NCBI GenBank assembly: GCA_013289705.1
Contig: JABCZM010000002.1
Span: 14,848 to 78,847, forward strand
DNA from: Candidatus Saccharimonadota bacterium
GTDB lineage: Bacteria > Patescibacteriota > Saccharimonadia > Saccharimonadales > UBA4665
Length of the DNA: 64,000 nt
Direction of reading: 5' to 3'
The notes below the pieces were generated by a model. It saw nothing but the letters and a program-made list of their open reading frames with translations, was not told the origin of the DNA and searched no databases. Each line of letters begins with the position of its first letter. Position 1 is the stretch's first letter. The position numbers were made by a program, and so were the translations under genes. Below are positions 22,322 through 56,191 of the stretch, in pieces.

Positions 22322-22346
22322 TTTGTGTTTTCTATTGATGATCGAA

Positions 22347-31322: not shown

Positions 31323-33786
<2,464 letters not shown>

Positions 33787-34016
33787 TTTGCTAATTCCTT
33801 CTTTGTCCTAAAACCATGAGCCCTCGCCTTATAAGGCACTTTTTCGCTTACCAACTCGCGGTAATCGGATAATTGCGAGATTAGACCCTTATACCATGTA
33901 ACCTAAGTTCAGACGATAGCCAACCGCACCATGTCGAAGTTTCGTATCAAAAGCACGTTGTGGCTTGGCAAGCTGAAAATTACAAATCGTCGAAGGATTT
34001 ATAACAATAAACCAGC

Positions 34017-34631: not shown

Positions 34632-34780
34632 CTGCATAATCCTCGTATTAACTATTGCCTTGATTCTAAGCCAAGAGGAACAAATGCACAATACACTTAA
34701 GATGAATGCCGGATTCGTATAAAGTCGCCTGAAATGCTTAATTTTCGCCTTTTGGTGAGGATTTTTGTATACTAGCAGGG

Positions 34781-35350
34781 ATGAGTTTTGATCCAGTAGA
34801 TTATTCGAATTTGGGTGTCAAAGAAACTGTTATTCCTGGTTTTTACGAGATAGATTTGGTTATTCATGGCGATAGTCGTGGCTGGTTTAAAGAAAATTAT
34901 CAAAAGGAAAAATTAGAGGCGCTTGGCTTGCCGGCATTTGAGATTGTGCAGAATAACTTTTCTTTTAATGCCCAAAAAGGCGTAACGCGTGGTTTGCATG
35001 CCGAGCCATGGGAAAAGTTTATATCGGTGGCGAACGGCAGCGTGTTTTGTGCCTGGGTTGACCTGCGCAAGGGCGATTCGTTTGGCCAGACATTCTCGCT
35101 GGAACTCAATCCTGGCAAAGCGGTATTTGTACCTCGTGGCGTTGCTAACGGTTATCAAACGCTTGAAGACAATGTTACCTACACCTACCTGGTGAACGCA
35201 CACTGGTCAGCAGAACTTAAGTACGCGGCTGTCAATTTGTTTGACCCGGAGCTTGGCATCAATTGGCCATTTGGCAAAGATCAAGCAATTGTTTCGGACA
35301 AAGATTTGCAGAATCCCTTGCTCAAAGATGTAACACCAATGGAGTTTTAA
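34781..35350 (+). CDS. rfbC: dTDP-4-dehydrorhamnose 3,5-epimerase
   Basis: 189 aa. GDSRGWFKENY, GVTRGLHAEP and VFVPRGVANGYQTL motifs. Confidence 0.92.
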   Translation: MSFDPVDYSNLGVKETVIPGFYEIDLVIHGDSRGWFKENYQKEKLEALGLPAFEIVQNNFSFNAQKGVTRGLHAEPWEKFISVANGSVFCAWVDLRKGDSFGQTFSLELNPGKAVFVPRGVANGYQTLEDNVTYTYLVNAHWSAELKYAAVNLFDPELGINWPFGKDQAIVSDKDLQNPLLKDVTPMEF

Positions 35351-36217
35351 ATGGATGAATCACGCATACTGATTCTTGGTGCGTACGGCCAGCTCGGCAA
35401 GGCACTGCAAGCGAAATATCCACAAGCAAAAGCAGTGAACCATGACGCTTTTGATATGACCGACTGGGACATGATTGAAAAGTATGATTGGTCGGGGGTT
35501 GATGTTATTTTGAACGCAGCCGTGTTTGCAAATGTCGATGGTTCGGAAACACCAGAAGGTCGAGAAGCCGCCTGGAAAGTCAACGCCACTGGCCCCGGAT
35601 ACCTCAGTAAGATTGCCGGTGCACATAATATAGTCTTAGTACACATCTCGTCTGACTACGTATTCGATGGTACAAAAAACCCACATACGGAAGAAGAAGC
35701 ATTTACACCCTTAGGCGTATACGGACAAGCAAAAGCGGCTGGCGACATCGCCGTTAGTACAGCCCCAAAGCACTATATTGCTCGTACCTCCTGGTTGATT
35801 GGCGACGGCCCGAACTTTCTTCGTACGATGATGGGTTTGGCCGACAAAAACATCTCACCGACAGTTGTGGCAGATCAAATTGGCCGGCTTACTTTTACAC
35901 CCACCCTGGTAGCGGCAATCGACCATTTGCTAGTAAGCAAAGCAGCCTACGGCACCTATAACGTCAGCAACGATGGTGCTCCAGCTAGCTGGGCCGATGT
36001 TACGCGCACTATCTTCAAAGAACTTGGTCGTGACGATTTAACGGTAACCGATACGACGACCGACGAATATTTTGCCAGCAAAACCGGTATTGCACCACGG
36101 CCGCTTAAAAGCGCTTTTGACCTTACGAAGCTACGAAACGCTGGTTTTGTAGCATCCGAATGGCCCTCTGCATTACACGATTACATTCAAGACGAACTAG
36201 CCAAAGTAAAGGAGTAG
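35351..36217 (+). CDS. rfbD: dTDP-4-dehydrorhamnose reductase
   Basis: [21 protein letters not shown] and YGQAKAAGD (YxxxK). The start abuts the rfbC stop. Confidence 0.9.
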
Positions 36218-36221
36218 CACT

Positions 36222-37079
36222 ATGAAAGGTATTATTTTAGCGGGCGGTTCTGGAACACGACTGTACCCAATCACCAAAGGTATCTCAAAACAGCTGATGC
36301 CGATCTATGACAAGCCGATGGTTTATTATCCGCTCAGCACGCTCATGATGGCGGGCATTCGTGAAATTCTAATTATTACTACGCCTGACGATCAGGCAGC
36401 CTTTCAGCGCCTGCTTGGTGACGGATCGAGCCTTGGTTGCGAGTTTAGTTATGCCGCCCAGCCATCGCCAGACGGTTTGGCGCAAGCATTTATAATCGGT
36501 GAAGAATTTATTGGTGATGATAAAGTCGCATTGGTGCTCGGCGACAACGTCTTCTATGGCCATGGCTTTGGTAGTAGCCTTAAAGAGTGCGTCGACCCAG
36601 ATGGCGGCATTGTCTTTGCGTACCAGGTATCTGACCCTGAACGCTACGGCGTCGTGGAGTTCAACGACAAACGTGAGGCTATTTCTATCGAAGAAAAGCC
36701 AGCTCAGCCAAAGAGTAACTTTGCAGTTGTGGGTCTTTATTTTTACGATAACGACGTGATAGAGATTGCTAAAAATATTAAGCCAAGCGACCGTGGCGAG
36801 CTAGAAATAACCGCTGTGAACGACGAATATCTCAAACGTGGTAAGCTCAAGGTCCAAACCATGGGCCGTGGGTCTGCCTGGCTCGACACTGGTACATTTG
36901 AGTCCATGAACAGCGCCTCACAGTTCGTGGAAGTTATCGAAAAACGTACTGGCTTCAAAATCGGCTGCATAGAAGAGGTTGCCTGGGAAGAAGGTTTCAT
37001 AAACAGTGACCAACTGACAGCCCTAGCCGAACCTCTCAAGAAATCCGGCTACGGCGAATACTTACTCGATCTACCTTGA
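36222..37079 (+). CDS. rfbA: glucose-1-phosphate thymidylyltransferase
   Basis: [42 protein letters not shown] and [19 protein letters not shown]. Confidence 0.95.
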
Positions 37080-37361
37080 AACTGTGATTGAATTACCTGT
37101 TAGTGTTGCTTTTACTGGGTAGGTATACGCGGGGACATCACCAATAACTGGATCGCAGGCGTCGTCAATGCCGTCATTATCAATGTCATGGCCACTGAGC
37201 GGAATAGTGAGACATTGGTCTTGAGCGTTCAAGATGCCATCACCATCCTAATCGTTGGTTATGGCTGCTATATAAACGACCCTATAGCTATCAATTGTTT
37301 GCTCGGCCATGTCTTTTCTAAGGAAATGCATCGTGTCATAGCCAGTTAACCAGTCCGTCAT
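37071..37361 (-). pseudogene. fragment of a thrombospondin-type-3 (Ca-binding DxDxDG) repeat surface protein, with an in-frame TAG
   Basis: The minus-strand frame reads MTDWLTGYDTMHFLRKDMAEQTIDSYRVVYIAAITND*DGDGILNAQDQCLTIPLSGHDIDNDGIDDACDPVIGD...SR*. The stop is at 37248-37250. There is no signal peptide or domain context. Confidence 0.35.
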
Positions 37362-37644
37362 CGTAACTCACTGGATAGTTCACATCGACCAAGTAACACG
37401 TCTTATTAACACCAAAGGTGACAACGCACCAAGGTCAGACGAGTCATTTGATTCATCGGTGATAGTTGGCCGCGTGCAATATCGTCTAGCAAAACTAGGC
37501 TACGCGCTGAATTTCTTGCGAAGCCCAGCAGGATTAATGGTTGCCATTTACCTACTAGCCATTATAATTGTCGTACTTGAGCTTCGACGACTAAATGCCT
37601 CTTACGAACAACCTACCTACCGACTAATGAACCACCTGCGCTAA
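37342..37644 (+). pseudogene. 5'-truncated SipW-type (S26B) signal peptidase I fragment
   Basis: The frame open from 37342 reads PVNQSVIVTHWIVHIDQVTRLINTKGDNAPRSDESFDSSVIVGRVQYRLAKLGYALNFLRSPAGLMVAIYLLAIIIVV. This matches the C-terminal two-thirds of SipW (VTHRI...TKGDNN...D...G.L.F...P.G + TM). The catalytic-Ser N-terminal part is absent. Confidence 0.55.
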
Positions 37645-37703
37645 GTAATCTAAATGCGCCACTATCCACGACCACGGATTGTAGTTATAATTGACAATAC
37701 TAT

Positions 37704-38153
37704 ATGCAAGAATTATTACTGTCGCTTATTCGACATCCTTTCAAGACTATTAACGGGCGAAAAGAGCTCCGCTATCTTGTAGCCGGTACAGCAAGTGAAG
37801 CCATAGAATATTTTAGCTTCCTTATCTTATTTGCGCTCGTGAATCAACTATACTTATCTAATTCTATTAGCTTTATATTAGGCGTCATTAGTGGTTTTAT
37901 CTTCCATAAAAATTGGTCATTTAGAGGCGAACACCAGTTTAAAACTAGGGACCAGTTTTTAGGATACGTTGGTTTGGCCGCAGTAAATTTTGTACTTATT
38001 AATTTGCTTGTTGGCTACCTTGTTGATGGGCTAAAAATTGCACCGGCAATTGCAAAGCTTGTAGCAATAGCAATAACCGTTATTTGGACTTTTGGGCTTT
38101 CAAATTTTGTGATATTTCGGCATCGAAAGCACGATGACGCACAGAAGCATTAA
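37704..38153 (+). CDS. GtrA family membrane protein (second copy)
   Basis: 149 aa with 4 TM helices. RYLVAGTASEAIEYFSFLIL and FHKNWSF motifs. Confidence 0.75.
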   Translation: MQELLLSLIRHPFKTINGRKELRYLVAGTASEAIEYFSFLILFALVNQLYLSNSISFILGVISGFIFHKNWSFRGEHQFKTRDQFLGYVGLAAVNFVLINLLVGYLVDGLKIAPAIAKLVAIAITVIWTFGLSNFVIFRHRKHDDAQKH

Positions 38154-38983
38154 TCCCCGTATATTTCTTGGGCAAAGCGAACGGCTTTTTCAACCCTGGC
38201 AACATTTTCGCCAATTTCTCCAGGGCGCATCTCAATTGATACATAATTTTGATAATTAATGTCGCGAAGTGTTTTTGCCGCCTCACGATGACGAACGTCC
38301 GCCCTGTCCTCAACTTGCTCGAGAAAAGGCGAGCTAATATGGAAATGTTGCAAGACACCTGAAGCATCGGTTATTGATTTGACAATGTCGTCACCAGCCA
38401 AAGTCATGCCGGCTATATCAAGGTGAAGGCCGAACCCCGGATTACTCACTAGGTTCACGAAATCAATTCCCTGCTGAGCATTTGTCACAAAATCACACGC
38501 ATATTCAGTTGGATTTGGCTCAATGCAGAATTTCACATTTTCCTCTTGGGCTCGTTTACCCAGAGTAGCAAAGAAAGCCTTAGCTACTTCATTGGCCTCG
38601 TGTTGTAGCATTTCGCTACGTTGGCGATTCTTTGGAGAGCCAAAGACCATGATCCCTGCGCCCATTTTGCCAGCTAAACCGATAAAACGCTTTAGATATT
38701 CGAGAGTTTTTGCTCTATTTTCCTCGTCCTCGAATATTTTGAGATCAGGACGCGAAAATAACATAGACTGGAAAGCAATTATTTCAATACCATAAGATTG
38801 CCAAAAATTCCTATACTCATCGGCTTCAGCTTGCGAAGCATTCGTAGGATTCTCCCATCGCTTGGTTGGTGCAAGTTCTACATATTTCATGCCTAGTTCA
38901 CGCAGCTTTTCAGCGACCGCCGCTTCTTCGTCATTTGTCCATGCGATGCTCGATACGGCCAGTTTCATTATGCTAACCCTCAC
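38150..38983 (-). CDS. xylose-isomerase-like TIM-barrel protein (sugar-phosphate isomerase/epimerase family)
   Basis: 277 aa. MKLAVSSIAW..., CIEPNP and LHLDIAGM metal-ligand-like motifs of the AP_endonuc_2 fold. Confidence 0.65.
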   Translation of the reverse strand: MRVSIMKLAVSSIAWTNDEEAAVAEKLRELGMKYVELAPTKRWENPTNASQAEADEYRNFWQSYGIEIIAFQSMLFSRPDLKIFEDEENRAKTLEYLKRFIGLAGKMGAGIMVFGSPKNRQRSEMLQHEANEVAKAFFATLGKRAQEENVKFCIEPNPTEYACDFVTNAQQGIDFVNLVSNPGFGLHLDIAGMTLAGDDIVKSITDASGVLQHFHISSPFLEQVEDRADVRHREAAKTLRDINYQNYVSIEMRPGEIGENVARVEKAVRFAQEIYGD

Positions 38984-39001
38984 AATATTTAGATTTATAC
39001 T

Positions 39002-39811
39002 TTAGAGTATATACGCTTGGCGGACAATATCTAATTCGGGAAGCACCTTTTGTAGATCACCAGGGTAACGCATTTCAAGAGATATAAATCCCAAATAACC
39101 CGACTGCTTAAGCGCCTGCGCCATTTCAGCATGCGGTACCAAGTTATCCTGGCTTAGTGGCGCAAGATCAGGGGCGCTAGCATCAAAAGATCGTATGCCC
39201 ACCTGCCGCATGGCATACGGCAAGTCCTGAACCCCCTCCTGTGCGCCAATTATTGCAGCGCTATCTAGATGTAGACCAAAACCGGAGTGATCTACATATT
39301 TAACCAGCTCGACACCCTCGCGAGTGGTCTTGATAAAATCATTGCCGTAGCCAGAGAGTGGTTCGACGCACAATACGGTTCCTTCTTCACTAGCCGTTTG
39401 CGCGACAGCAGTAAAAACCTCTTTAGCATTCTGCAGCCTTAGCCCCGAACTCAAACTATTCCCTTGTCGCAAAGCCGGTGAACCGAAAATCATAGATTCG
39501 GCCCCAAGTCTTCCAGCCAGCTCAGCCTGTCGCTTTAAGTGCTCGGTAAGATTACGCCGTTGATCAGATTCTCCGAAGAGTGCGACATCCTGGCGTCCAA
39601 AAGCCAGTGACTGAAGCCCAAAAACAGCCAAGCCCACATCCTCTAGTCGTTTTCTATAATCCGACACTATAGCGACATCAGTCAAAGGAGCGTCATCCCA
39701 GACCATTGTCGGTGCCAGTACCAAGCCCTCAACTCCATTAGCCGAAAGGGCAGAAAGCATACTGTACGGAACTTCCGCTGGCAATGCGATGCCGGAAATG
39801 GCGAGTTTCAT
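39002..39811 (-). CDS. xylose-isomerase-like TIM-barrel protein (second, divergent copy)
   Basis: 269 aa. CVEPLS, GLHLDSAA and ISLEMR motifs. Paralogous architecture to 38150-38983. Confidence 0.65.
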   Translation of the reverse strand: MKLAISGIALPAEVPYSMLSALSANGVEGLVLAPTMVWDDAPLTDVAIVSDYRKRLEDVGLAVFGLQSLAFGRQDVALFGESDQRRNLTEHLKRQAELAGRLGAESMIFGSPALRQGNSLSSGLRLQNAKEVFTAVAQTASEEGTVLCVEPLSGYGNDFIKTTREGVELVKYVDHSGFGLHLDSAAIIGAQEGVQDLPYAMRQVGIRSFDASAPDLAPLSQDNLVPHAEMAQALKQSGYLGFISLEMRYPGDLQKVLPELDIVRQAYIL

Positions 39812-39814
39812 AGC

Positions 39815-40588
39815 TTAACCGAACACCGTCGCATATTTTGCAATAAATTGTTTAATATCATCAAGCTCTTCATCCTTCGTCATAATATAGTGCTCCGGAC
39901 CATGGAAAGTGCTGGCATATTTTGTGTGCATGTCCCAACGTGTCGGTAACACATCTGCTGGTTCATTAGTAAAAGTCTTGTCAAAACAATACTTCGCCAA
40001 TTCCTCGGTGCTCACAGGCGGAGTCGCAAGGTTCACTAGAGGCAACCCGTTATTAATTGCGACTTCGATATCATGCCATAGATTAGCGAGATTATAGTAC
40101 TGGTACACCCCGTCTTTGTGTATCCGATCTAGATTATTGTTATTGAGCAGGTCATAGATAACATTCTTCTTGAGCCCCGTGCCAAAGAGACCGGGCAACC
40201 GCAAAATGGTCGTATCGAAGTTGTCGTGGCAGTATTGCTCTAGGAAATAGCGATTCGCACCGTATGGCAGCAGATCCTCAGCTTCGATAGGCGTATCTTC
40301 GTCTACACCGACAGCAGTCTTATAGACACCGACTGTTGAAATAAGCACCAGCTTATGAACCCGTACTTTCGAGATATGACCAACGTATTCCTTGATCTCA
40401 GCCAGGTCTTTTTCACCTTCCTGGTTGATGCGCCACATCTCGGCTCGGTTTGCGGCACTTACAACCAAGTCGTATTCTCTGCCCTCTATCTCATCAATGT
40501 TTGAAGAGTTGTAAAGATCATCGAACACATGCCGTGCAGCAATATTCGAACCGACAAAACCGGTATAACCTATAAGAGCAGTCTTCAT
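39815..40588 (-). CDS. NAD(P)-dependent epimerase/dehydratase-like (atypical SDR)
   Basis: MKTALIGYTGFVGSNI glycine-rich loop and LISTVGVY. 257 aa. Confidence 0.65.
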   Translation of the reverse strand: MKTALIGYTGFVGSNIAARHVFDDLYNSSNIDEIEGREYDLVVSAANRAEMWRINQEGEKDLAEIKEYVGHISKVRVHKLVLISTVGVYKTAVGVDEDTPIEAEDLLPYGANRYFLEQYCHDNFDTTILRLPGLFGTGLKKNVIYDLLNNNNLDRIHKDGVYQYYNLANLWHDIEVAINNGLPLVNLATPPVSTEELAKYCFDKTFTNEPADVLPTRWDMHTKYASTFHGPEHYIMTKDEELDDIKQFIAKYATVFG

Positions 40589-40599
40589 GTAGCTTCTCC

Positions 40600-41523
40600 T
40601 TAATATCCAATTCTACACTGGCCAGGCCGTGGATGATAGCCCAAAGGCGAAAATTCAGCTTCCATTTGCACTAAATGATCCTCAAAGACCTCATTAGAAG
40701 CGTCAGCATCAAATGGTGCAATAGTATTAAGGACAAAATCGGCAATACGCCGAGATTCCGGCCTTACGTCTGAGCGACCAAGCAGATAATCAAGTTGCAG
40801 CTTGAATTGATCGTAACGCTTACGGTCGAAAACCGGACTACCTGTTTCCTGCGCAACCATAGCTTGAGGATAACGCAAGTCAAAAGAGACGCCACCAATA
40901 GGTAGACCAGCTTCTCGTGCTGCGAGCGGTGTGTGGTACATATATATCCAGTTGTTCATGTTAGCTTCGTTCGCAGGATATCGTGCAAGATGTTCGGCAC
41001 CCGCCACGGTGAACCCACGTGGTCCGCAAAGGGCATCAGCCGGAAAAGCGTGAGTCTGTTCGAGTACCCAGCCCGCCAAACGTTCTGTACGTCGCTGGAC
41101 AGGGGGCATAGTACTCTCTGCGAGGGCAGTCCGGCCAACAACGAGTACGTCGTACGTCGTAAGCCCCTGGATAATTTCGGACGCGAAGTCTGATATATGC
41201 GTCTTTTCAGGTTCATGGGTAACCATATTCTCTGCGGCACCGGCTACTGCGTAGGCAATGCCTTGCTTGCGTTGAGTAGCAATGCCATTAACATCAGAGG
41301 GCAGAACAATTGCACCGCGGCGGCGATGTGCCGCTGCTACCCAGTCACCCATGCCACCATCTTCTGGTGAACCATCGACAACAACCAATGGCCGTCCGCT
41401 ATCGCGCCATCGCTCAGCATTATCGAGCGATAACTCAAACCGAACATCGCTAGGGTCGGTATAGAAAGTAGCTGTCGCACCGACCAAATCTACGCCAGCA
41501 AATTCGCTTGAATATTGTGTCAT
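40600..41523 (-). CDS. hypothetical protein, possibly a GT-A-fold glycosyltransferase-like enzyme
   Basis: 307 aa. LVVVDGSPEDGG (resembles a DxD-containing nucleotide-sugar loop) and CGPRGFTVAG. Noticeably more GC-rich than its neighbours. The family is not recognised. Confidence 0.3.
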   Translation of the reverse strand: MTQYSSEFAGVDLVGATATFYTDPSDVRFELSLDNAERWRDSGRPLVVVDGSPEDGGMGDWVAAAHRRRGAIVLPSDVNGIATQRKQGIAYAVAGAAENMVTHEPEKTHISDFASEIIQGLTTYDVLVVGRTALAESTMPPVQRRTERLAGWVLEQTHAFPADALCGPRGFTVAGAEHLARYPANEANMNNWIYMYHTPLAAREAGLPIGGVSFDLRYPQAMVAQETGSPVFDRKRYDQFKLQLDYLLGRSDVRPESRRIADFVLNTIAPFDADASNEVFEDHLVQMEAEFSPLGYHPRPGQCRIGY

Positions 41524-41563
41524 TTAAGATAAGATCATAGCATAAAACTTCAAGTAAGTCAAA

Positions 41564-42382
41564 CTATCGGCGATACTTACGTCGAGTGGCTTTGAGTAAG
41601 ATGCCCATGACATGGGCATTACCCTTTATAGGACTAATCTTTGTGGGCGTTTTGCCTTTTTTGGGATATTCACGGGTTACCGGGGTTTCAATAAGTTTAA
41701 ACCTTTTGGCGCGCGCGCTTTCAACGGCCAAATGATAATGAAGTTCATAGGTCTTGAAAACATCACGGAACACCGATATGTCCTTATCTAAAAGCAGCTT
41801 TTTGCTGTAAGCTCGAAAACCATTGGTGGTGTCTGTATGGCGATGTCTTGCGGCAATGCTTAAAAGTGGAGCGTGTAGAACACGGACAGCTATCAGCCTT
41901 TCTAGAGGCGTATTAACTGCCCTACCACCCTTAATGAAACGAGAGCCCTGGATATGATCGTAGCCTTCATCCAGCAGTTTTACAAAATCCGGGATTGCCG
42001 AGATATCATCCTTCCCATTCCCGTCCACCACAATTACACCATCATAGCCCTGGTTCATGGCATAGGCGAAAGCCATACGCATTTGTGCACTAAGTTTCCC
42101 TGGTCCCGTCTTGGTTAACAGCGCTCGCACGCCAACAGTTTTCAGAAAATCAGATTCGAGTGAACCGTCCGTGCTACCACCGTCGGCGACCAAAATGTCT
42201 ACGGCCGACACATACCGCTTCATCTTTGTGAGCTGTTTTTGAACCTTCTGGCCTTCATTGATAACAAACACGCATACTGCGTATCGATTCTTTTTGATAA
42301 AGAACTCTTCAAGCTTAAAATCGGGAAATTCCCACGAGGGATTATTTTTTTTAATTAACTCTGCTGGATTCATATCCAACAC
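41564..42382 (-). CDS. glycosyltransferase family 2 (soluble GT-A)
   Basis: VCVFVINEG..., VADGGSTDGS, VVDGNGKD (DxD-like) and GFRAYSKKLL. Confidence 0.75.
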   Translation of the reverse strand: MLDMNPAELIKKNNPSWEFPDFKLEEFFIKKNRYAVCVFVINEGQKVQKQLTKMKRYVSAVDILVADGGSTDGSLESDFLKTVGVRALLTKTGPGKLSAQMRMAFAYAMNQGYDGVIVVDGNGKDDISAIPDFVKLLDEGYDHIQGSRFIKGGRAVNTPLERLIAVRVLHAPLLSIAARHRHTDTTNGFRAYSKKLLLDKDISVFRDVFKTYELHYHLAVESARAKRFKLIETPVTREYPKKGKTPTKISPIKGNAHVMGILLKATRRKYRR

Positions 42383-42383
42383 C

Positions 42384-43361
42384 TTACTTAGTTACGTTTC
42401 TACGAGTTTCATCAGCAATACTAACGGTACTGCTAAGCTCTTGCTTAATATGATACGGTGATTCGTCGCGAGTCTCCTCTAATATCTGACCGATATACTC
42501 AGCCAACATAGCCACAATAAGAAACAGAAAGAAAAACATTATTGATGACTGCATTGAAAGTGTTGTCCAGCCCCTGGCGATATCATCCTGGGAAATGTTA
42601 ACCAGCACTACGTAAGCCGCGTACAGTAAGTTTGTGGCACTTGCGAAGATGCCAAAATAGGTAAGAGCACGAAGCGGGTGACTTGAATAGCTAGACACAA
42701 GATTGATGGCGCGGAGTGCCAGAGCATTTTTTGATGTGCTGTAAAGCTCCTTACCCTTGGGTAACTTGTAGTAGAAATTTTCCGCCTCAAAACCAATCTG
42801 CTTTGCCAGGTAGCGTATATGTTTTGAATAGCGCCCGCTACGGGTTAAGGCATTCACAGCCGTACGATTCATGCCAATAAAGTAAGTTGCGCCATGCGGA
42901 ATATCAATTTTCAAAAACTTGCGATTGTACCAATAAAACATGCGAGCGCCTACATCTTCTAGCTTATTCTGACGGCGCAAGTTTGTGGCTACCCCAAATA
43001 TGATGTCCGACTTAGACCGCAAGCGCTCAATCATAGCTGGTATGTTTTCGGCAGGATCTTCGTTATACAGCACACAAATGTAGTCGCCTATGGCCGCTTC
43101 AACTCCGGCAAAAACAGCCGTGTCGCTTTCGCCGATTTTCGACAAACGCATAACACGAATACAAGCAATCTCCTTCAAGCTAGTCGCTACTGCCTCGACG
43201 TCTTTCGGTAACAGACCATTATCAATCAACAAAACCTCGTAATTGGCGTAGTTTTTCTTCAGTAAGCTTGTTAGTTTTTGCAACTTTGAAACGACATTAT
43301 CAACTTTTTCATCAGCAACAAAAACAATTGTCACAAATGCATCTAGTATTTTACTTTCCAT
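42384..43361 (-). CDS. GT2 polyprenyl-phosphate glycosyltransferase-like (GtrB/DPM1-like, two C-terminal TM helices)
   Basis: VTIVFVADEK..., LLIDNG, a GT-A core, then the TM helices LTYFGIFASATNLLYAAYVVLV and IMFFFLFLIVAMLAEYIGQI. Confidence 0.65.
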   Translation of the reverse strand: MESKILDAFVTIVFVADEKVDNVVSKLQKLTSLLKKNYANYEVLLIDNGLLPKDVEAVATSLKEIACIRVMRLSKIGESDTAVFAGVEAAIGDYICVLYNEDPAENIPAMIERLRSKSDIIFGVATNLRRQNKLEDVGARMFYWYNRKFLKIDIPHGATYFIGMNRTAVNALTRSGRYSKHIRYLAKQIGFEAENFYYKLPKGKELYSTSKNALALRAINLVSSYSSHPLRALTYFGIFASATNLLYAAYVVLVNISQDDIARGWTTLSMQSSIMFFFLFLIVAMLAEYIGQILEETRDESPYHIKQELSSTVSIADETRRNVTK

Positions 43362-44460
43362 AGGTAATCTTTAGCTCCCTGAAAACATCGTAAATATTGT
43401 CTATCTTACCACCCATTATACAGATATAATTGGCGACGCCTCCGTAATGATCTTTGTATAAGATGGGCCTGCTGTCGTCCGCCTCGCTCTGTGGCAGGAC
43501 GGTCTTCACCTCCCAGAGTGATTCACCACTATACGTGACATGTTTCGCAGCAGGCATGTAGCGCTTCACATCAGCTATCATCTGAGGAAAGTGGCTCACT
43601 CGCTCAATATCGTTTAAATATTGATGACTATCCCTGACATGGTCGGGCGTGTCGTGCCACTCACTGTGTGGTGTATAGCGAACATGTGATAAGCTGAACT
43701 TGTTTTTATCCGGAAAAGGCATGAGCGAGAAAAAAGGACCACACATAATAGTAAAGGCTGCTGTCGAGAATTCTTTTGGGACATCAACCAGGCACATTTC
43801 TGTTAGCTCGTGCTTGAGTGGTATTGAAGGCAGACCCGATCTATTGTTCACATTATTAATCGACGAATATGTCGTATTAAGGACGTGAGTCCCCAGGTAG
43901 CTATTCTTGTCCGTCTGAACAGTGATTCCACCCTCACCTTGCCAAATCGAATCTACGCTCTCCCCAACATTAATATCAACTCTCAATTCGGAGAGTTTTC
44001 TGAGTAGCAAGTCCTTCAAAATCTTAGTATTAAACGCATATTCCTCGACTTCGAACACTTGTTCTATGAGTCTTCTGTCAAAAAAGTCCATGCCTATTTT
44101 CGAGGGTTCAATCTTGGCGCCGATTCTCTCATAAAATCTCAGAAATTGATTTGCCGAAACCTTAGAAAAGCTTGTGGCAATTGCGTAATACTTCGTAAAA
44201 TCTCGCACTATGGCCTGTTCATACTCTTGCGAAAATATCGGCAGATTGACTCGTGAACGGAGAGCGGTTAATACGCTGCGCGGATAGTGGTAGCCATTGT
44301 GGACACGCGCCTGATTGTTATACGAAGCCCGTTGCATGACATCCGGCTCTTTTTCAATAACCAGTACGCTAGACTGCCCCAAATCTTCTTTCAGAAATTG
44401 AGCAAGCCTTAGCCCGTAAAACCCCCCACCTATGATTATTGTGTCGTATCGTCTACTCAT
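43351..44460 (-). CDS. FAD-dependent oxidoreductase (GR2/DAO-like dinucleotide fold), specificity unknown
   Basis: YDTIIIGGGFYGLRLAQFL ... VLVIEKE. 369 aa. Overlaps the downstream GT2 gene by 11 nt. Confidence 0.65.
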   Translation of the reverse strand: MSRRYDTIIIGGGFYGLRLAQFLKEDLGQSSVLVIEKEPDVMQRASYNNQARVHNGYHYPRSVLTALRSRVNLPIFSQEYEQAIVRDFTKYYAIATSFSKVSANQFLRFYERIGAKIEPSKIGMDFFDRRLIEQVFEVEEYAFNTKILKDLLLRKLSELRVDINVGESVDSIWQGEGGITVQTDKNSYLGTHVLNTTYSSINNVNNRSGLPSIPLKHELTEMCLVDVPKEFSTAAFTIMCGPFFSLMPFPDKNKFSLSHVRYTPHSEWHDTPDHVRDSHQYLNDIERVSHFPQMIADVKRYMPAAKHVTYSGESLWEVKTVLPQSEADDSRPILYKDHYGGVANYICIMGGKIDNIYDVFRELKITYGK

Positions 44461-44506
44461 TAGCTTCTAGATTATTATTAGTTGAGTTCTCACTTCCGAC
44501 ACTGCC

Positions 44507-44542
44507 TGTTTGTGCTGCTTTATCAAATAGACAGCACAAACA
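44507..44542. promoter_or_regulatory. perfect 11-bp inverted repeat TGTTTGTGCTG-N14-CAGCACAAACA in a divergent promoter region
   Basis: Arms at 44507-44517 and 44532-44542, between divergently transcribed genes 43351-44460(-) and 44626-46461(+). Confidence 0.4.
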
Positions 44543-44625
44543 CTTATTTCATCTTTAAATGATAACGCAAGTAACCGTCGAGACAATTAGCAAGCTTAAT
44601 ACTCTATATAGTATACTTTATACAA

Positions 44626-46461
44626 ATGCCCAAACCTACGTCTTTAAGATACTTTGAAAATGGTTTTGTAAAATTTAGCCTACTCTTTGTTTCCCTGACT
44701 TTTGCGTTCATAACATCGAAGTTGCTTGAAGTCATTATACGGCCGTCAAATCCAGCAGACATTCAAAACTTATATGCGGCAGCCGGCAAGTTTAATCCGG
44801 CGGAAAATTTTATAAGAATCTTGTGGATAGCAGTTTTTTCGATCGTGTTTTACAAATGCCTTAGCCTGTTACTGGCCAAGAAACCTTTGGTTTTTAGGGT
44901 TATTTTTATCTTTCTGGCTGTTTTTAGTATTCTTTCAATTGAAATAGTACCGAGAATTCAGGCATACAAGGGCAATCTCGACACCTTCCATAATGGTGAG
45001 CAGCTGTCTCCTGCTAACGACTTCAATGCCGGCAAAGGACTCTACAGCGGCATGTTTGTGCTTCATGGAGCAGGCGAAGATGTACTAGTCCCGTCATTAG
45101 CACTTCATGCAGCACACAAGGGAGCGAATCCCAACGGTATTAGTACTTATTATTTTCTTACGTCCATACTCGAACTCATTTCAGCGGCACTTTTTATCTC
45201 TCTACTAGCAATATTATTTGAAAATACAGCCCTTTTTATAGCCACGACTTTATGGTTCGTACTCGGCATGTATTCAAGCTTTGACTATGCACGGGACATA
45301 TTTACATGGCTTATATTTGGTTTAATATTCTACGTCGTTGTTCGGCGCAACAATAAGCATAAGACGGCAGCGTACATCGGCGTAGGCGGCTTAAGTTCTG
45401 CCGCCATATTCTATGCGATTGACAGGGGTCTAATCGCCACATTTTTAGCAATCCTTCTCACACTTACTACTCTTTTTGTAAAAACTGCTGACAATGGAAA
45501 ATTATCGCTTACCTTACCTAAAAAAATGGAAAATTATAAAAATGCCGCATTCATCATTGGGAGTATGCTAGTGGTACAACTGATCGGCTTACTAATACTA
45601 GGCTTCGGGCAATACAAAGATTTCCTTATTACTTATTTCGTGGATATACCCAAGTACGAAGGGTTACTTTTCGATTACCCACTGCGTACTTTCAATACTG
45701 CAAACTTTACACTTTGGATACCAATCATACTTATACCCTTTGCAACATTAATGCTTAATGCACTCGTGAGAAGCGGTAAAAAAATCAACTTTGGGCCATC
45801 AGAAGTTTTTGCATTCTTGTTATTGGCCACGGGGATATTATTTCTACAAGGTGGTTACGGAAGATACGACGCAGGCCATGTCGCATACTCAACTCCGGTT
45901 CTTTTTGTCGCAGTGTTTTATATTTCGTGGCTATATACTAAGAAATTTTATGCAGACAAAGAGAAGTTGTGGCTGCCGGTGGTTGCAATCGGGCTTTTAT
46001 TTATACCCATATCGACAATCGACGTCAGCAGACTTAGCGCCCTGGTGAATGTTAGCCCCGGGCAAGTAAAACAGGTCGTGACACTTCCGAGCATACCAGA
46101 TCGAGAATGGATTCCATCATACGTTCAACAGGTGACGAATTTTATTACCAACAACACCTCCAAATCTGATCCTATTTTCGTTTTTACACAGCAGCCCATA
46201 TATTACTATCTAACTGACAGACGTAACCCAACAAGATTTTACATACCATGGTTTGCCGACCCAAAGCCTCTCGAAACCGAACTATTAGCATCGCTCAAGA
46301 AGGATAATCCCAAATACATACTGTACTCTGGTGGTACCGGGTGGGATGATGTTGATGGATCTACTATGCAACAGCGAACACCTACCGTAGACGCTTGGAT
46401 TAGAGCAAACTACCCCGTACAGCATCTGGTTGGCGCGGCTATTATACTATCCAAGAACTAA
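44626..46461 (+). CDS. large polytopic membrane protein with C-terminal soluble domain (candidate GT-C-type glycosyltransferase)
   Basis: 611 aa with about 12-14 TM helices and a ~150-aa extracytoplasmic C-terminal domain. AT-rich. No specific motif recognised. Confidence 0.4.
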   Translation: MPKPTSLRYFENGFVKFSLLFVSLTFAFITSKLLEVIIRPSNPADIQNLYAAAGKFNPAENFIRILWIAVFSIVFYKCLSLLLAKKPLVFRVIFIFLAVFSILSIEIVPRIQAYKGNLDTFHNGEQLSPANDFNAGKGLYSGMFVLHGAGEDVLVPSLALHAAHKGANPNGISTYYFLTSILELISAALFISLLAILFENTALFIATTLWFVLGMYSSFDYARDIFTWLIFGLIFYVVVRRNNKHKTAAYIGVGGLSSAAIFYAIDRGLIATFLAILLTLTTLFVKTADNGKLSLTLPKKMENYKNAAFIIGSMLVVQLIGLLILGFGQYKDFLITYFVDIPKYEGLLFDYPLRTFNTANFTLWIPIILIPFATLMLNALVRSGKKINFGPSEVFAFLLLATGILFLQGGYGRYDAGHVAYSTPVLFVAVFYISWLYTKKFYADKEKLWLPVVAIGLLFIPISTIDVSRLSALVNVSPGQVKQVVTLPSIPDREWIPSYVQQVTNFITNNTSKSDPIFVFTQQPIYYYLTDRRNPTRFYIPWFADPKPLETELLASLKKDNPKYILYSGGTGWDDVDGSTMQQRTPTVDAWIRANYPVQHLVGAAIILSKN

Positions 46462-46532: not shown

Positions 46533-47135
46533 ATGACAACTCAGAAAGCAGTCAGAGGCAAGACTTCAAGGAAGCGGCCATTGTTCGCCGTCTCTTTAGT
46601 AGCGGTTATTGCTCTAGTTGGTTTATTATTCGTGTCGGAGTTAACCAATGTGACTCACCTTTTTCACTCCGAGGCACCTACTAAACAAGTTACAGCGAGT
46701 CAAGATACTAAAGGAGAACTGCCAAAAAGTAATACGAGTACTGCCAAAAACAGTCCTACTCAAACACCGAACACACAGATCAATACTGGCCAGCCCAGTG
46801 ATAATAAAAGCACATCTGGTGGCAACACCGACACGAATCTAATAGAGCCGTCGGGCACTTTTGTAAGCGCACATAACGTTCCGACATCAGTTTCCCTGGC
46901 ATCAGTTTGCAATACCACGCCAGGTGCAACTTGTAAGATAGATTTCACTAAAGACGGGGTGATAAAAGAACTTCCCTCAGAAACGACGGATGGGGGTGGC
47001 TCAGCATACTGGAATAGCTGGACTCCAGCTAGCCTAGGTCTAACATCGGGTAATTGGCAAATCACAGCCATAGCACAACTCGGTACCCAGACTAAAACCA
47101 GCGTAGACGCCTTACCGCTAAAGGTTTCGGAATGA
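46533..47135 (+). CDS. single-pass membrane-anchored exported protein, function unknown
   Basis: N-terminal K/R-rich segment plus TM helix LFAVSLVAVIALVGLLFV, an S/T/N/P-rich linker and a small beta-rich domain. The stop overlaps the next ATG (ATGA). Confidence 0.5.
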   Translation: MTTQKAVRGKTSRKRPLFAVSLVAVIALVGLLFVSELTNVTHLFHSEAPTKQVTASQDTKGELPKSNTSTAKNSPTQTPNTQINTGQPSDNKSTSGGNTDTNLIEPSGTFVSAHNVPTSVSLASVCNTTPGATCKIDFTKDGVIKELPSETTDGGGSAYWNSWTPASLGLTSGNWQITAIAQLGTQTKTSVDALPLKVSE

Positions 47136-48898
47136 AAAGGAATCGCTTTTTCAGCGTCGCTTTCTGCTTGATCTTGGGCTTAGCCATGGGCTTGTCCTTG
47201 GCTAAGCCGGTAAGTGCAGACTCATTCAATCAGAACAATATTATAGATGATACCGTTTTTGACAATACCGGTGTAATGAATGTTACTCAGATTGATGGAT
47301 TCTTAAATTCATTTCCAAATAGCTGCATCAGCTCAAATAGTGGCTTTGGTGCAGTCGATCCAACCGGCTACAACCCAACCAGTGGATATACGTATGGTAG
47401 CTATGTAACAGCGGGCCAAGTTATTTATGATGCCGCCCAGGCCTACGGCTTAAACCCGCAAGTTCTCCTTGCTACCCTACAAAAAGAGCAAGGTATCGTA
47501 GTCGGGGCTACGAATTTCTGCAGCAATGGCGACCAAAATAAATACACTGCCGCGGTCGGTTACGGCTGTCCGGATAGTGGCGCTACTTATAGCTACAGCA
47601 ACTTAAACCTGTACGAACGTAATGGCGTAACCGTTTCGAGTACGGGCTCAACTTGCGTAAACAGTCCCTTGAAAGCTGGTTTCTCGCAACAAGTAATTAG
47701 GGCTGCATGGTTGCTCAAATTCGGCGAACAGCGCTCACAAGGCAACACTGGCTGGGCAGTTATTAAAGGTAGCTGGAACAACTCCGACGATCCGCAGACT
47801 TGCTATGGTGGCCCAATGACCCAGGGGACGTACCAGCGTTGCCCGAGTGGTGGTTTGGCCTATTACGATGGCTATACGACGATAGATGGAACGGCCGTAC
47901 ATATGGACACGGGGGCTACAGCGGCACTATATTGGTACACCCCCCACTTCCATGGCAACCAAAGCTTTTTCAGTCTATTCTACGCCTGGTTCGGTCCTAC
48001 ACACGCGTACTTTGGTAATATACCATCTTCAAGCTCAACGTATGCAAGAAGTGCTTGTGATATTCCAGGCTTCGATAGCTCAATGATTGGTCGGCTTTAT
48101 AATCCCGACACACAAGATTTCTTATATACTACAAGTCGTATCGAGGCCTGTTCTGCAGTGAGCTATGGATATATTTGGGATGACGTTGTGATGCAAAACG
48201 CAACCGGCCAAGATGCCATACCAGTCTATCGAATCGCAAATTATAATCGTCATATCTTTACAACAAGCGCTTCAGTCCGTGATAGTGCCATAGCTAGTCA
48301 AGGGTACCATGATGAGGGTGTACCGTTCTATGTTTATTCCACTGCCGGTACCGGCAGAACGGCAGTCTACGGACTACAGTCTGGCCCCACCTTCTTCTTT
48401 ACTAGTGCCGGTAAAGAAGCGGAAAGCTACGTCAACACTTACGGCTATTCATCCTATGGAGTAATCTTCTATACCCCGGCTTTAGATACCGGTGACTTTC
48501 CGGTGAATAGACTTGTCCGCAATAATCAAAGAATATATACGCCAAACCTTGTAGAAGTTGCGAATGCTATGCAGTACGGCTTTCAGAAAGAAGGAACTGT
48601 CTCGGTCGACGATACCATGCCAAACGTGGGCAATATGCCCGTATATCGCCTAAAAACACCCGCCGGAATATATGTATATACCACAAGTCGTTTAGATAGA
48701 GATATAGACGTTATCTACTACAACTGTGTTGCGGAGGGGATGCCGTTCTATAGTCTGGCGTACTCAAACACCCCCGTATATGCCGCCACAAATCCGCATA
48801 ACGGCTTCTGGATCTATGCAAGCAATCCTCAAGAATACAATGACGCTACCAGTTACTATTCATATCTTGGTGACGGGACTGGTTGGTATGGCTACTAG
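47132..48898 (+). CDS. secreted protein: N-terminal LLATLQKEQ-type (putative cell-wall-active) domain plus six DUF5648-like ~40-aa repeats
   Basis: Signal peptide MKRNRFFSVAFCLILGLAMGLSLAKPVSA. AAQAYGLNPQVLLATLQKEQGIV. Repeats of the type [V/L]YR[L/I]xNxxxxxxxYTTS....GYxxEGVxFY (RLYNPDTQDFLYTTS; VYRIANYNRHIFTTS; VYRLKTPAGIYVYTTS, and others). Confidence 0.6.
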   Translation: MKRNRFFSVAFCLILGLAMGLSLAKPVSADSFNQNNIIDDTVFDNTGVMNVTQIDGFLNSFPNSCISSNSGFGAVDPTGYNPTSGYTYGSYVTAGQVIYDAAQAYGLNPQVLLATLQKEQGIVVGATNFCSNGDQNKYTAAVGYGCPDSGATYSYSNLNLYERNGVTVSSTGSTCVNSPLKAGFSQQVIRAAWLLKFGEQRSQGNTGWAVIKGSWNNSDDPQTCYGGPMTQGTYQRCPSGGLAYYDGYTTIDGTAVHMDTGATAALYWYTPHFHGNQSFFSLFYAWFGPTHAYFGNIPSSSSTYARSACDIPGFDSSMIGRLYNPDTQDFLYTTSRIEACSAVSYGYIWDDVVMQNATGQDAIPVYRIANYNRHIFTTSASVRDSAIASQGYHDEGVPFYVYSTAGTGRTAVYGLQSGPTFFFTSAGKEAESYVNTYGYSSYGVIFYTPALDTGDFPVNRLVRNNQRIYTPNLVEVANAMQYGFQKEGTVSVDDTMPNVGNMPVYRLKTPAGIYVYTTSRLDRDIDVIYYNCVAEGMPFYSLAYSNTPVYAATNPHNGFWIYASNPQEYNDATSYYSYLGDGTGWYGY

Positions 48899-56123: not shown

Positions 56124-56191
56124 TGGTTGTAGAGTATTATAGATGAAGATTGGCCTGAAGTCGACAAAACTCCTATATAATATTGGTTAGT

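Follow-up and report, generated by a model that had tools for sequence, protein, structure and literature searches.

What are a flavoprotein, a reductase-like protein and two sugar-isomerase-like TIM barrels doing among genes for glycosyltransferases (GTs) and membrane proteins? The question is raised by a cluster of nine open reading frames (ORFs) in a stretch of 64,000 nucleotides from a Candidatus Saccharimonadota bacterium (assembly GCA_013289705.1, contig JABCZM010000002.1, positions 14,848 to 78,847), hereafter called the window. An earlier note had proposed that the cluster may encode an undescribed route to a modified lipid-linked sugar donor; an ORF check of the window found all nine ORFs where the note had placed them, and no description of this gene combination was found in the literature searched. 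The evidence given below makes it likely that three of the encoded enzymes, the flavoprotein (FAD), a protein resembling short-chain dehydrogenases/reductases (SDR-like) and a TIM barrel, form a rare-sugar trio that is coupled to delivery via a two-part polyprenyl-phosphate glycosyltransferase, a small flippase (GtrA or an SMR protein) and a lineage-specific GT-C protein decorating an exported glycan. The full statement, which joins to this architecture the tailoring of the sugar while it is linked to lipid, is put forward more tentatively, at a little less than an even chance.

Seven of the ORFs stand head to tail on the minus strand (38150-44460), spaced by no more than 40 nt or overlapping, and the run is flanked by gtrA, which converges on it and overlaps the TIM1 gene by 4 nt, and by the divergent gene of a 611-aa protein. 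The flavoprotein gene overlaps that of the membrane-bound GT2 by 11 nt (43351-43361), as had been claimed, and Pfam and NCBIfam likewise support the first assignments of GtrA, the two xylose-isomerase-like barrels, the SDR, the two GT2 proteins (one with C-terminal transmembrane (TM) segments) and the FAD oxidoreductase. The features of the cluster are the following:

37704-38153, plus strand: GtrA-family small membrane protein, 149 aa, candidate polyprenyl-phosphate-sugar flippase (PF04138)
38150-38983, minus strand: TIM1, xylose-isomerase-like TIM barrel, predicted metal-dependent keto-sugar epimerase (PF01261)
39002-39811, minus strand: TIM2, an optional paralog of TIM1 (PF01261)
39815-40588, minus strand: SDR-like protein, 257 aa, predicted keto-sugar reductase (weak PF01370 match and motifs)
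40600-41523, minus strand: GTA3, soluble protein of 307 aa with a modelled GT-A fold, without a described family (AlphaFold and Foldseek)
41564-42382, minus strand: GT2s, soluble GT2 like AglJ and dolichyl-phosphate-mannose synthase (DPMS), 272 aa (PF00535, NCBIfam AglJ)
42384-43361, minus strand: GT2tm, GtrB homolog with a C-terminal TM hairpin and without DxD (profile against GtrB 5eke)
43351-44460, minus strand: FAD, DAO-superfamily flavoprotein, 369 aa, predicted sugar dehydrogenase (PF01266)
44461-44625, no strand: divergent intergenic region of 165 bp, AT-rich (GC 0.33), presumed shared promoter region (coordinates and GC)
44626-46461, plus strand: polytopic protein of 611 aa with a modelled GT-C fold (AlphaFold and Foldseek)

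A core of five genes and its spread

Conservation as a unit, on which the proposal had been made to depend, was found for part of the cluster: the core five genes (FAD, GT2tm, GT2s, SDR-like and TIM) recur in Saccharibacteria and in distant lineages. Saccharibacteria loci were collected from the neighbourhoods of GTA3 homologs and from a scan of species-representative genomes, and at least 15 of them carry the gene set, including those of cultured oral Nanosynbacter and HMT-488 strains. Their order is FAD-GT2tm-GT2s-(polytopic membrane gene or genes)-SDR-like-(TIM2)-TIM1-GTA3, or a permutation of it, next to gtrA and rml genes, the latter also adjoining the module in L001, L005, L007, L010 and L017. 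GT2s is the best-conserved component, with 66-74% identity within Saccharibacteria and 47-54% to Proteobacteria, and the SDR-like protein comes second within Saccharibacteria (60-71%). Where homologs of the window's proteins are named, they belong to Candidatus Saccharibacteria.

Spread beyond this group was followed in sampled gene contexts of the SDR-like family, for which an exhaustive search gave 489 cluster representatives at E <= 1e-30, and in a plasmid database. Co-occurrence had been suggested for the Candidate Phyla Radiation (CPR) and Actinobacteria, and the set is indeed conserved, with a distribution far wider than those groups. The core five are also present in metagenome contigs of 65% GC (L022, where a PMT_2 GT-C accompanies them) and of 30% GC, and L024 is an isolated six-gene island among the housekeeping genes GroEL, AhpC and LysR. 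An Azospirillum plasmid (L027) carries the core five in an O-antigen-type cluster, and Cereibacter sphaeroides plasmid p.A (CP031752.1; L028) carries them together with GtrA. On the 10.8-kb plasmid pA22P4 of Psychrobacter sp. ANT_P22 (NZ_MN657058.1; L026), the cargo consists of nothing but the module, an SMR transporter and a 479-aa polytopic protein, the other genes being for replication and mobilisation. The minimal islands, L024 and pA22P4, contain no kinase, nucleotidyltransferase or phosphatase. In RefSeq, the proteins of all these loci carry generic names.

Members of the set are also joined by four kinds of natural fusion, FAD-SDR, SDR-TIM, SDR-Gfo/Idh/MocA and GT2tm-GT2s. The SDR-like protein forms a single polypeptide with a DAO-type flavoprotein in P0277 and P0292 and with the TIM barrel in P0258, P0325 and giant-virus loci; its fusion partner in P0266 is a Gfo/Idh/MocA sugar dehydrogenase, standing where the flavoprotein would be. 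Since the set recurs in order in at least 15 Saccharibacteria loci and in distant lineages, and since four kinds of fusion join its members, the arrangement is not due to chance; the fusions further indicate that the FAD, SDR-like and TIM proteins work together. The nine genes had first been treated as one set, and this view stands for the core five; on the gene contents compared, GtrA, GTA3 and this 611-aa GT-C are lineage-specific accessories.

Glycosyltransferases, a proposed rare-sugar trio and membrane proteins

In GtrB, the DxD motif is universally conserved, with D94-x-D96 and Q98 binding the Mg2+-UDP-sugar, D157 a candidate base and R197 a phosphate-binding residue (PMC12698845). GT2tm has two C-terminal TM-like segments, and its profile matches GtrB (5eke/5ekp) from end to end, TM hairpin included (E = 7e-35, residues 11-311; ArnC 3e-22). 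The positions of D94-x-D96, Q98, D157 and R197 are occupied in it by variable residues or, for D157, by an invariant Tyr160; for example, the DxD site reads YNE, DQT, NPA, SLH and so on across 10 Saccharibacteria sequences and IEP in the 65%-GC homolog. It retains D47, D102 and R183, together with the juxtamembrane and TM region. The TM-bearing GT2 had been taken for the polyprenyl-phosphate synthase; lacking equivalents of DxD, Q98, D157 and R197 in every lineage examined, it is probably not the catalytic protein, a part that would fall instead to GT2s, and it is predicted to assist GT2s and the FAD enzyme as a partner that is not itself catalytic, at the membrane or by binding lipid.

GT2s belongs to PF00535, and its NCBIfam match to AglJ (1e-14) scores 54.5 bits against a cut-off of 325. 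Its profile aligns to the DPMS of P. furiosus (5mlz, 1e-7), and the motifs ADGGS, QGSRF, TDxxNGFR and RxYPxxGKTPTK are kept. The metal site is atypical, with an invariant D120-G-N122-x-K124-D125 where DxD...Q is expected. In L026, an uninterrupted 592-aa ORF (5410-7188) unites GT2tm residues 3-316 (E = 2e-41) and GT2s residues 327-590 (E = 8e-83); this fusion was read from the ORF, the public gene table holding only the C-terminal 262-aa GT2 (6403-7188) with 5410-6403 unannotated. In L028, an 839-aa "GT2 family protein" (12459-14978) consists of a GT2s-type domain, 48% identical to that of the window, and a C-terminal domain of about 10 TM segments. Because GT2tm is without DxD, and because GT2s is the best-conserved component and can be fused to GT2tm, GT2s is probably the catalytic subunit of the polyprenyl-phosphate glycosyltransferase and GT2tm its partner. 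In all bacterial lineages examined, the FAD gene directly adjoins GT2tm, usually overlapping it, while the remaining genes change order; the overlap measures 1-23 nt in the window and in L003, L005, L022, L024, L026, L027 and L028.

The two TIM barrels match PF01261 (TIM1 9e-28, TIM2 1e-20) and are about 30% identical to each other. TIM1 is present in every module copy and TIM2 in about half of the Saccharibacteria loci. The invariant E155, D189, H215 and E251 of TIM1 form the Glu-Asp-His-Glu tetrad of ketose 3-epimerases, and TIM2 keeps the E, D and E with an Asp in place of the metal-binding His215. The TIM1 family profile matches TM0416 (1.7e-16), psicose/tagatose 3-epimerases, IolI and the 3-keto-glucoside 4-epimerase YcjR (6wn6, 3e-7), and NCBIfam gives weak matches to hydroxypyruvate and 2-oxo-tetronate isomerases. 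Equivalogy to IolO, D-psicose 3-epimerase, fructoselysine 3-epimerase or L-ribulose-5-phosphate 3-epimerase was rejected, as the best score was 73.8 bits against an NCBIfam cut-off of 300.

The SDR-like protein has a partial Pfam match to PF01370 (1.6e-6, residues 43-144), and its weak Pfam and PDB matches are enzymes of nucleoside diphosphate (NDP)-sugars, namely RmlD, GalE and UDP-GlcA 4-epimerase. GxxGxxG, S84, Y109 and R113 are conserved in 142-143 of 143 cluster representatives. The motif is YxxxR rather than YxxxK, with Arg113 in all 143, so that the canonical triad of extended SDRs is absent; a distinct SDR subfamily with a Ser-Tyr-Arg triad is predicted, acting as a keto-sugar reductase.

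The flavoprotein matches PF01266 over residues 6-311 (4e-13, 50.1 bits against a gathering score of 27.9) and has an invariant GGGFYG, which opens the LhgO/GlpD-like N-terminal motif GGGFYG...ASYxNQARVHNGYHYPRS; the NCBIfam models of LhgO (L-2-hydroxyglutarate oxidase) and glycerol-3-phosphate oxidase match the N-terminus only. A PDB sequence search with the single flavoprotein yielded nothing of use, profile searches of the PDB with the FAD and SDR-like families returned only weak, N-terminal or partial matches, and the flavoprotein is without a close solved structure. It is predicted to be a dehydrogenase that converts a sugar hydroxyl into a keto group. Two candidate identities were rejected: UDP-galactopyranose mutase (UGM), as only residues 1-45 align to UGM structures (E about 0.1) and PF03275 is not matched, and DprE1, a VAO/FAD_binding_4 protein, as the cassette flavoprotein is DAO-type with no FAD_binding_4 match. 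Elsewhere in the window (8415-9365, minus strand), a canonical DAO-family FAD oxidoreductase of 316 aa (PF01266, 4.6e-44), unrelated to the cassette flavoprotein, adjoins an Ldh_2-family gene. The tetrad, the SDR motifs and the flavoprotein family together lead to the proposal of hydroxyl oxidation, epimerisation next to the ketone and reduction.

At the membrane end, GtrA matches PF04138 (E = 2e-17, 63.9 bits against a gathering score of 26.1) and has 3-4 TM segments, three of them strongly hydrophobic by a simple scan. It lies beside the module in L001, L005, L010, L011, L017, L021 and L028, and its place is taken by the SMR transporter in L026. The 611-aa protein has no Pfam or PDB sequence match and only 12 detectable homologs, and a Pfam scan of all 12 was empty. 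Its chain has about 10 TM-like segments and ends, from about residue 490 onward, in a soluble domain. In its AlphaFold model (pLDDT 83.4), the top Foldseek matches are exclusively GT-C proteins, namely DPY19 (4.6e-6), AftA, PglB, ArnT, ALG9, Pmt4 and AftB, with TM-scores of about 0.4-0.45 to GT-C structures. The GT-C likeness that had been suggested is thus borne out in the model, by which the protein has a GT-C fold. The most conserved loop of the family covers residues 115-156, with invariant D119, H122, E125 and D152, and includes the invariant D119-x-F-H-x-G-E125 after a TM helix. The protein is predicted to be a lineage-specific transferase that moves a sugar from polyprenyl phosphate to a wall polysaccharide outside the membrane. 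In other loci, DUF2142, PMT_2 or orphan polytopic proteins stand in for it, and hhalign and BLASTP comparisons of the 611-aa family with these partners found no relationship. The three-component GtrA/GtrB/GtrC logic that had been read into the cluster holds at the level of folds, as GtrA, a GtrB homolog and a GT-C fold are all represented.

GTA3 also lacks any Pfam, NCBIfam or PDB sequence match, and it has at least 350 homologs, every one labelled "hypothetical" and the named ones from Saccharibacteria. It had been described as GT-A-like without a recognisable family, and its AlphaFold model (pLDDT 92.8) agrees in showing a GT-A fold, with Foldseek matches to ArnC, GtrB, mannosyl-3-phosphoglycerate synthase, mannosylglycerate synthase and PcManGT (TM-scores 0.4-0.55, 10-15% identity). 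An invariant E104-P-E106 stands at the expected DxD position, and all three GT-A proteins (GTA3, GT2s and GT2tm) have atypical metal motifs. The gene was also called GC-rich, and its GC content does lie above the window mean, only mildly so (0.512 vs 0.466). GTA3 is absent from L021, L022, L024 and L026-L028. It is an accessory specific to Saccharibacteria and may, speculatively, lengthen the lipid-linked sugar as a cytoplasmic GT, a role suggested because WpsC-F elongate a lipid-linked monosaccharide in the cytoplasm before flipping (PMC9574508). In the Saccharibacteria metagenome-assembled genome contig JAUMZA010000002.1 (L018), a GTA3 homolog lies in two overlapping, apparently frameshifted ORFs (about 9911-10892) with no other module gene within 10 kb, and looks like a decaying, orphaned copy.

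The stage of the proposed tailoring and the comparison with known systems

The chemical steps, the sugar and the acceptor that we infer from these folds, motifs, conservation, fusions and distribution would be as follows. GT2s, held at the membrane by the DxD-less GT2tm, would move a common hexose from a housekeeping NDP-sugar onto polyprenyl phosphate. At the cytoplasmic face, the DAO-type flavoprotein, possibly recruited by GT2tm, whose gene its own always abuts, would oxidise the lipid-linked sugar at one ring hydroxyl, giving a ketone. TIM1, with TIM2 where present, would epimerise the carbon or carbons beside the ketone via a metal-stabilised enediolate, as the conserved active-site residues suggest, and the Ser-Tyr-Arg SDR-like enzyme would reduce the ketone and leave a rare hexose epimer on the lipid. 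In Saccharibacteria, GTA3 may, speculatively, add a further sugar. GtrA, or elsewhere the SMR protein, would flip the donor across the membrane, and the 611-aa enzyme with its modelled GT-C fold would move the sugar to a polymer outside the membrane, which in this Saccharibacterium is probably the surrounding rhamnose-containing wall polysaccharide. Tailoring at the lipid-linked stage is preferred for bacteria because the FAD and GT2tm genes are coupled, because the DxD-less GtrB retains its lipid-facing parts, because the minimal islands contain no nucleotide-sugar-forming genes, and because DprE1/DprE2 and Citrobacter ORF13 offer precedents (PMC11127046). A more far-reaching version holds that this is a new way of making rare sugars on a lipid carrier, in which a dead GtrB paralog serves as a scaffold presenting the polyprenyl-phosphate-hexose from GT2s to a trio that is widespread in several bacterial phyla, plasmids and giant viruses, the product being a hexose epimer unobtainable from the organism's nucleotide-sugar pool; taken as a whole, it seems rather doubtful.

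Relatives of the trio were also found in viral contigs (IMG/VR, several of them GVMAG; L030-L045), where 16 loci contain SDR-like relatives. In 6 of the 16, FAD, SDR-like and TIM are three genes, and in another 5 the FAD gene lies next to an SDR-like-TIM fusion of about 520 aa (trio positions, for example, L036 6328-8921 and L038 6959-9486). The viral flavoprotein is a full-length member of the FAD family (E = 3e-23). One of these loci, whose neighbouring genes encode an Erv1/poxvirus-E10-like protein, XRN and Lon, clearly belongs to a giant virus, and in another, a 372-kb low-GC contig, the trio is surrounded by GT2, GT11, GT17 and DUF5672 proteins together with methyltransferases; in L038, its neighbours are Leloir glycosyltransferases and methyltransferases. 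Misassignment is possible for some IMG/VR contigs; L036 is convincingly viral. The viral trio points to an unrecognised viral rare-sugar pathway, and such enzymes are not mentioned in a review of giant-virus glycans.

Several observations weigh against the proposed bacterial pathway. No viral GT2 resembles GT2s, and no GT2s, GT2tm, GtrA or GT-C was found near the viral trio; the trio thus does not strictly need polyprenyl-phosphate machinery, being found in viruses without it. Distant SDR-like relatives (33-38% identity) stand beside RmlB-like 4,6-dehydratases and a DegT aminotransferase, without FAD or TIM. The likeness to the oxidase and reductase pair DprE1/DprE2, drawn when the cluster was first described, is consistent with the fusions and with the Gfo/Idh/MocA replacement so far as an oxidase/epimerase/reductase set is concerned, and its second part, tailoring on the lipid, can be called no more than plausible in view of the viral trio and of these relatives from NDP-sugar pathways. 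The donor and even the activity of GT2s are uncertain because D-G-N-x-K replaces DxD...Q, the GT-C assignment of the 611-aa protein comes from models with TM-scores of about 0.45, and no GtrA was found in the Nanosynbacter loci, L022 or L024. The acceptor, moreover, is read from the gene neighbourhood, and the module of L024 is not next to polysaccharide genes.

The viral loci bear on the alternative in which tailoring precedes lipid attachment, so that the trio would make a rare NDP-sugar in the cytoplasm, GT2s and GT2tm would load it onto polyprenyl phosphate for delivery by flippase and GT-C, and viral Leloir GTs would use the NDP-sugar directly. A trio without GT2s or GT2tm, both in genuine giant-virus contexts and in the cluster of GT2, GT11, GT17 and methyltransferase genes, is what this would produce, and the RmlB-like dehydratases and DegT next to the SDR-like relatives, the NDP-sugar enzymes among the weak SDR-like matches (RmlD, GalE, UDP-GlcA 4-epimerase) and the 47-54% identity of GT2s between phyla, which would be expected if the enzyme served a single unusual donor, are in keeping with it. 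It leaves unexplained, however, the universal bacterial presence of a DxD-less GtrB paralog with its abutting or overlapping FAD gene and the constant bacterial routing via a GT-C rather than a Leloir GT, and neither DAO-type flavoproteins nor xylose-isomerase-like TIM barrels are known to act in NDP-sugar pathways. This alternative is considered possible, if on balance unlikely. It is clearly improbable that the product of the trio is a substituent other than a hexose, made from a small phosphorylated metabolite (for example a tetrulose or tetritol, a glycerate-type unit or a polyol phosphate), in the manner of GlpD/EryB-type dehydrogenases with EryC-type TIM racemases, and that the GT-A proteins attach it to the lipid carrier or the polymer. 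The sole recognisable similarity of FAD, to L-2-hydroxyglutarate and glycerol-3-phosphate oxidases, would suit such chemistry, as would the weak TIM1 matches to hydroxypyruvate and 2-oxo-tetronate isomerases, the mannosyl-3-phosphoglycerate and mannosylglycerate synthases among the structural neighbours of GTA3 and the atypical metal motifs of all three GT-A proteins; yet these similarities are confined to the dinucleotide-binding N-terminus or fall far under family cut-offs, TIM1 is closest, among characterised proteins, to hexose and ketose 3-epimerases, the FAD enzyme can give way to a Gfo/Idh/MocA sugar dehydrogenase, genes for a kinase, a nucleotidyltransferase or a phosphatase do not occur in the minimal islands, and GTA3 is absent outside Saccharibacteria.

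Two further explanations are given very little weight. The FAD, SDR-like and TIM genes might be catabolic (for inositol, a ketose or a 3-keto-glycoside) or unrelated housekeeping neighbours of the GT genes, and the TIM barrels do share a superfamily with IolI/IolO, psicose epimerase, YcjR and DgpC. Placement of the barrels in inositol or ketose catabolism had been named as a result that would count against the first proposal; with cut-offs of about 300, their NCBIfam scores reach 74 bits at most, transporters, kinases and regulators for sugar catabolism are missing from the loci, linkage to GT2s, GT2tm and polytopic GT-C-type proteins holds across phyla and on the minimal plasmid, and the viral trio sits among glycosyltransferases and methyltransferases, all of which makes a catabolic role scarcely credible. 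Hardly more can be said for modification of the lipid carrier instead of the sugar (polyprenol saturation or oxidation, or dolichol-type maturation). The conversion of polyprenol to dolichol elsewhere uses an FAD-dependent reductase/oxidase and an SDR, a combination that is met here, and the FAD gene is coupled to that of a lipid-binding GtrB-like protein; against this, a sugar-epimerase-type TIM barrel is obligate in the trio and can be fused to the SDR-like protein, Gfo/Idh/MocA can substitute for the FAD enzyme, FAD matches DAO and not the geranylgeranyl-reductase families, and the viral trio stands without lipid-carrier enzymes.

In kind, the proposed pathway of lipid-stage tailoring and external transfer belongs to extracytoplasmic glycosylation of the Gtr/Csd/Gac type, with auxiliary remodelling of the donor as in the mycobacterial and Citrobacter systems; it differs from all systems compared in the families of the remodelling enzymes, the split or degenerate GtrB, the entry point via NDP-sugar and GT2, and the very wide, mobile distribution. 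GtrA/GtrB/GtrC of Shigella and Salmonella phages and CsdA/CflA/CsdB of Lactococcus lactis likewise combine a GtrB-family GT-A, a GtrA-family protein and a polytopic GT-C-fold protein; the Csd cluster adjoins a rhamnan-type polysaccharide locus, and in both systems the GT-C partner is without sequence conservation between lineages (PMC9574508). As gtr cassettes are carried on phages, so is this module mobile, on a small Psychrobacter plasmid. Unlike Gtr and Csd, the cassette has a GtrB homolog without the universally conserved DxD, an obligatory second, soluble DPMS-like GT2 that can be fused to it and three built-in redox and epimerase enzymes, and its GtrA is dispensable or replaced by SMR in some lineages. 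In GacI/GacJ/GacK/GacL, which place GlcNAc on the group A streptococcal rhamnan, and in the WpsA/B derivatives, two proteins may similarly form the C55-phosphate-sugar, a catalytic GT-A and a membrane partner, parts that GT2s and GT2tm would play here, and side chains are likewise placed on a rhamnan that leaves the cell through an ABC transporter (PMC9574508). GacJ, however, is a small activator with three TM segments, whereas the partner in the cassette is a full-length degenerate GtrB paralog; the cassette has no Wzx flippase, and Gac and Wps have no FAD, TIM or SDR enzymes.

Remodelling of a lipid-linked donor is seen in Mycobacterium, where the flavoenzyme DprE1 oxidises a lipid-linked sugar and the reductase DprE2 completes the epimerisation of decaprenyl-phosphate-ribose to decaprenyl-phosphate-arabinose (DPA), before a flippase (the GtrA-like Rv3789) and GT-C enzymes (Aft/Emb) take over (PMC11127046), and AftA of this pathway is among the structural matches of the 611-aa protein. 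The enzyme folds had been noted to differ from those of DprE1/DprE2, and so they do: the cassette flavoprotein is DAO-type, a TIM-barrel epimerase is added and the reductase is an atypical, Ser-Tyr-Arg SDR. In addition, the donor would come here from an NDP-sugar via a GT2 and not from a UbiA-type phosphoribosyl pyrophosphate (PRPP) transferase, and the lipid-linked substrate is a proposal; a UbiA/PRPP entry point was considered and rejected, as the scanned ORFs of the window include no UbiA-family protein. In the pentofuranose system of Citrobacter youngae O1/O2 (ORF15 polyprenyl-phosphoribose synthase, ORF14 MATE flippase, ORF12 GT136 GT-C and ORF13 SDR epimerase), side chains are also added after polymerisation, an auxiliary cytoplasmic epimerase diversifies the lipid-linked donor, and ORF12, like the 611-aa protein, is a GT-C with a C-terminal soluble domain; its authors know of no other epimerases in such systems (PMC11127046). 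A single canonical YxxxK SDR stands there against the three-enzyme FAD/TIM/SDR set here, and the synthase is PRPP-dependent and the flippase of a different family.

YcjS of E. coli belongs to the Gfo/Idh/MocA family, as does the dehydrogenase fused to the SDR-like protein in P0266, and YcjR is a detectable relative of TIM1 and TIM2 (6wn6, 3e-7). As summarised in PMC11543891 from Mabanglo et al. 2020, YcjQ/YcjR/YcjS interconvert D-glucosides and D-gulosides via 3-keto-glycosides, so that on that account a dehydrogenase, a xylose-isomerase-like TIM epimerase and a second dehydrogenase or reductase act on an intact glycoside, much as is proposed for the trio. The Ycj system differs in being catabolic, soluble and linked to an ABC importer, with no flavoprotein, SDR of this kind or glycosyltransferases, and the sequence similarity is distant.

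Multi-component extracytoplasmic glycosylation is a means by which many bacteria vary their surface antigens, and known instances of sugar remodelling inside such systems are very few, namely DprE1/DprE2, a tuberculosis drug target, and one SDR in Citrobacter; the cassette would add a third, enzymatically different solution. If confirmed, it would establish a pseudo-GtrB, a Ser-Tyr-Arg SDR and a flavoprotein sugar dehydrogenase as new enzyme families, disclose a sugar on the surface of the episymbiotic Saccharibacteria, whose envelope chemistry is barely known, and provide a portable module for glycoengineering. The Psychrobacter plasmid, which is small and mobilisable and carries the module as its sole cargo, makes the question directly testable.

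The surrounding polysaccharide locus and other observations

The cluster is embedded in a large rhamnan-type cell-wall polysaccharide locus recognised by Pfam matches to rmlABCD, Wzm/Wzt and RgpF. Upstream lie an initiating phosphotransferase, a GT4, GlmS, ManC, PMM and then rmlB/C/D/A, and downstream a secreted DUF5648 protein, a WbsX+RgpF fusion, a GT2, a methyltransferase, the Wzt/Wzm exporter and more GTs. Rhamnose-rich wall polysaccharide loci share such a layout, and in them three- or four-component systems attach side chains outside the membrane (PMC9574508); the rml genes presumably supply dTDP-L-rhamnose for the presumed acceptor polymer. The principal neighbours, assigned by Pfam, are:

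32701-33786, plus strand: rmlB
34781-35350, plus strand: rmlC
35351-36217, plus strand: rmlD
36222-37079, plus strand: rmlA (rml genes together 32701-37079)
48908-51352, minus strand: WbsX+RgpF fusion
51353-53104, minus strand: GT2
53142-54116, minus strand: methyltransferase
54109-55311, minus strand: Wzt ABC ATPase with Wzt_C
55314-56123, minus strand: Wzm permease

The fusion protein at 48908-51352 has 814 aa, with a WbsX-type glycosyltransferase domain and the C-terminal region of RgpF, and is likely to be the rhamnan-elongating enzyme here. Between the cluster and this gene (46533-48898), a 200-aa Ser/Thr-rich, membrane-anchored protein without a family is followed, with a 4-nt overlap, by a secreted 588-aa protein with three DUF5648 repeats. 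A similar pair, of 191 aa and a 567-aa DUF5648 protein, also flanks the module in L001, and for this reason the pair may be a surface protein associated with the wall polysaccharide. In the divergent intergenic region of the cluster (44461-44625), there is a weak -35/-10 match on the minus strand (44586-44559); promoter and terminator scans gave sites no commoner than in shuffled sequence, and Rfam found no match across 33.5-48 kb. The gap between rmlA and gtrA (37080-37703) comprises 624 bp without an ORF of at least 80 aa and without an Rfam match, and contains a good -35/-10 match on the plus strand (37541-37568); it may have a regulatory function or be what is left of a degraded gene.

Three other ORFs of the window, all on the minus strand (3111-4802, 19718-21280 and 21650-22417; 563, 520 and 255 aa), matched no Pfam family at E <= 1e-4, and a 224-aa protein between rmlB and rmlC (34017-34691, minus strand) has a weak N-terminal match to Flp1-like pilin alone. 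The Ldh_2 gene (malate/L-lactate dehydrogenase family; 9375-10350, minus strand) that adjoins the canonical DAO-family gene is apparently split into the overlapping ORFs 9375-10010 and 9889-10350, the first of which covers profile positions 131-332 only, possibly through a frameshift, a pseudogene or a sequencing error. A 491-aa protein with Schlafen AlbA_2 and HATPase_c_4 domains (56183-57658, plus strand) is encoded between wzm and further glycosyltransferase genes of the polysaccharide locus.

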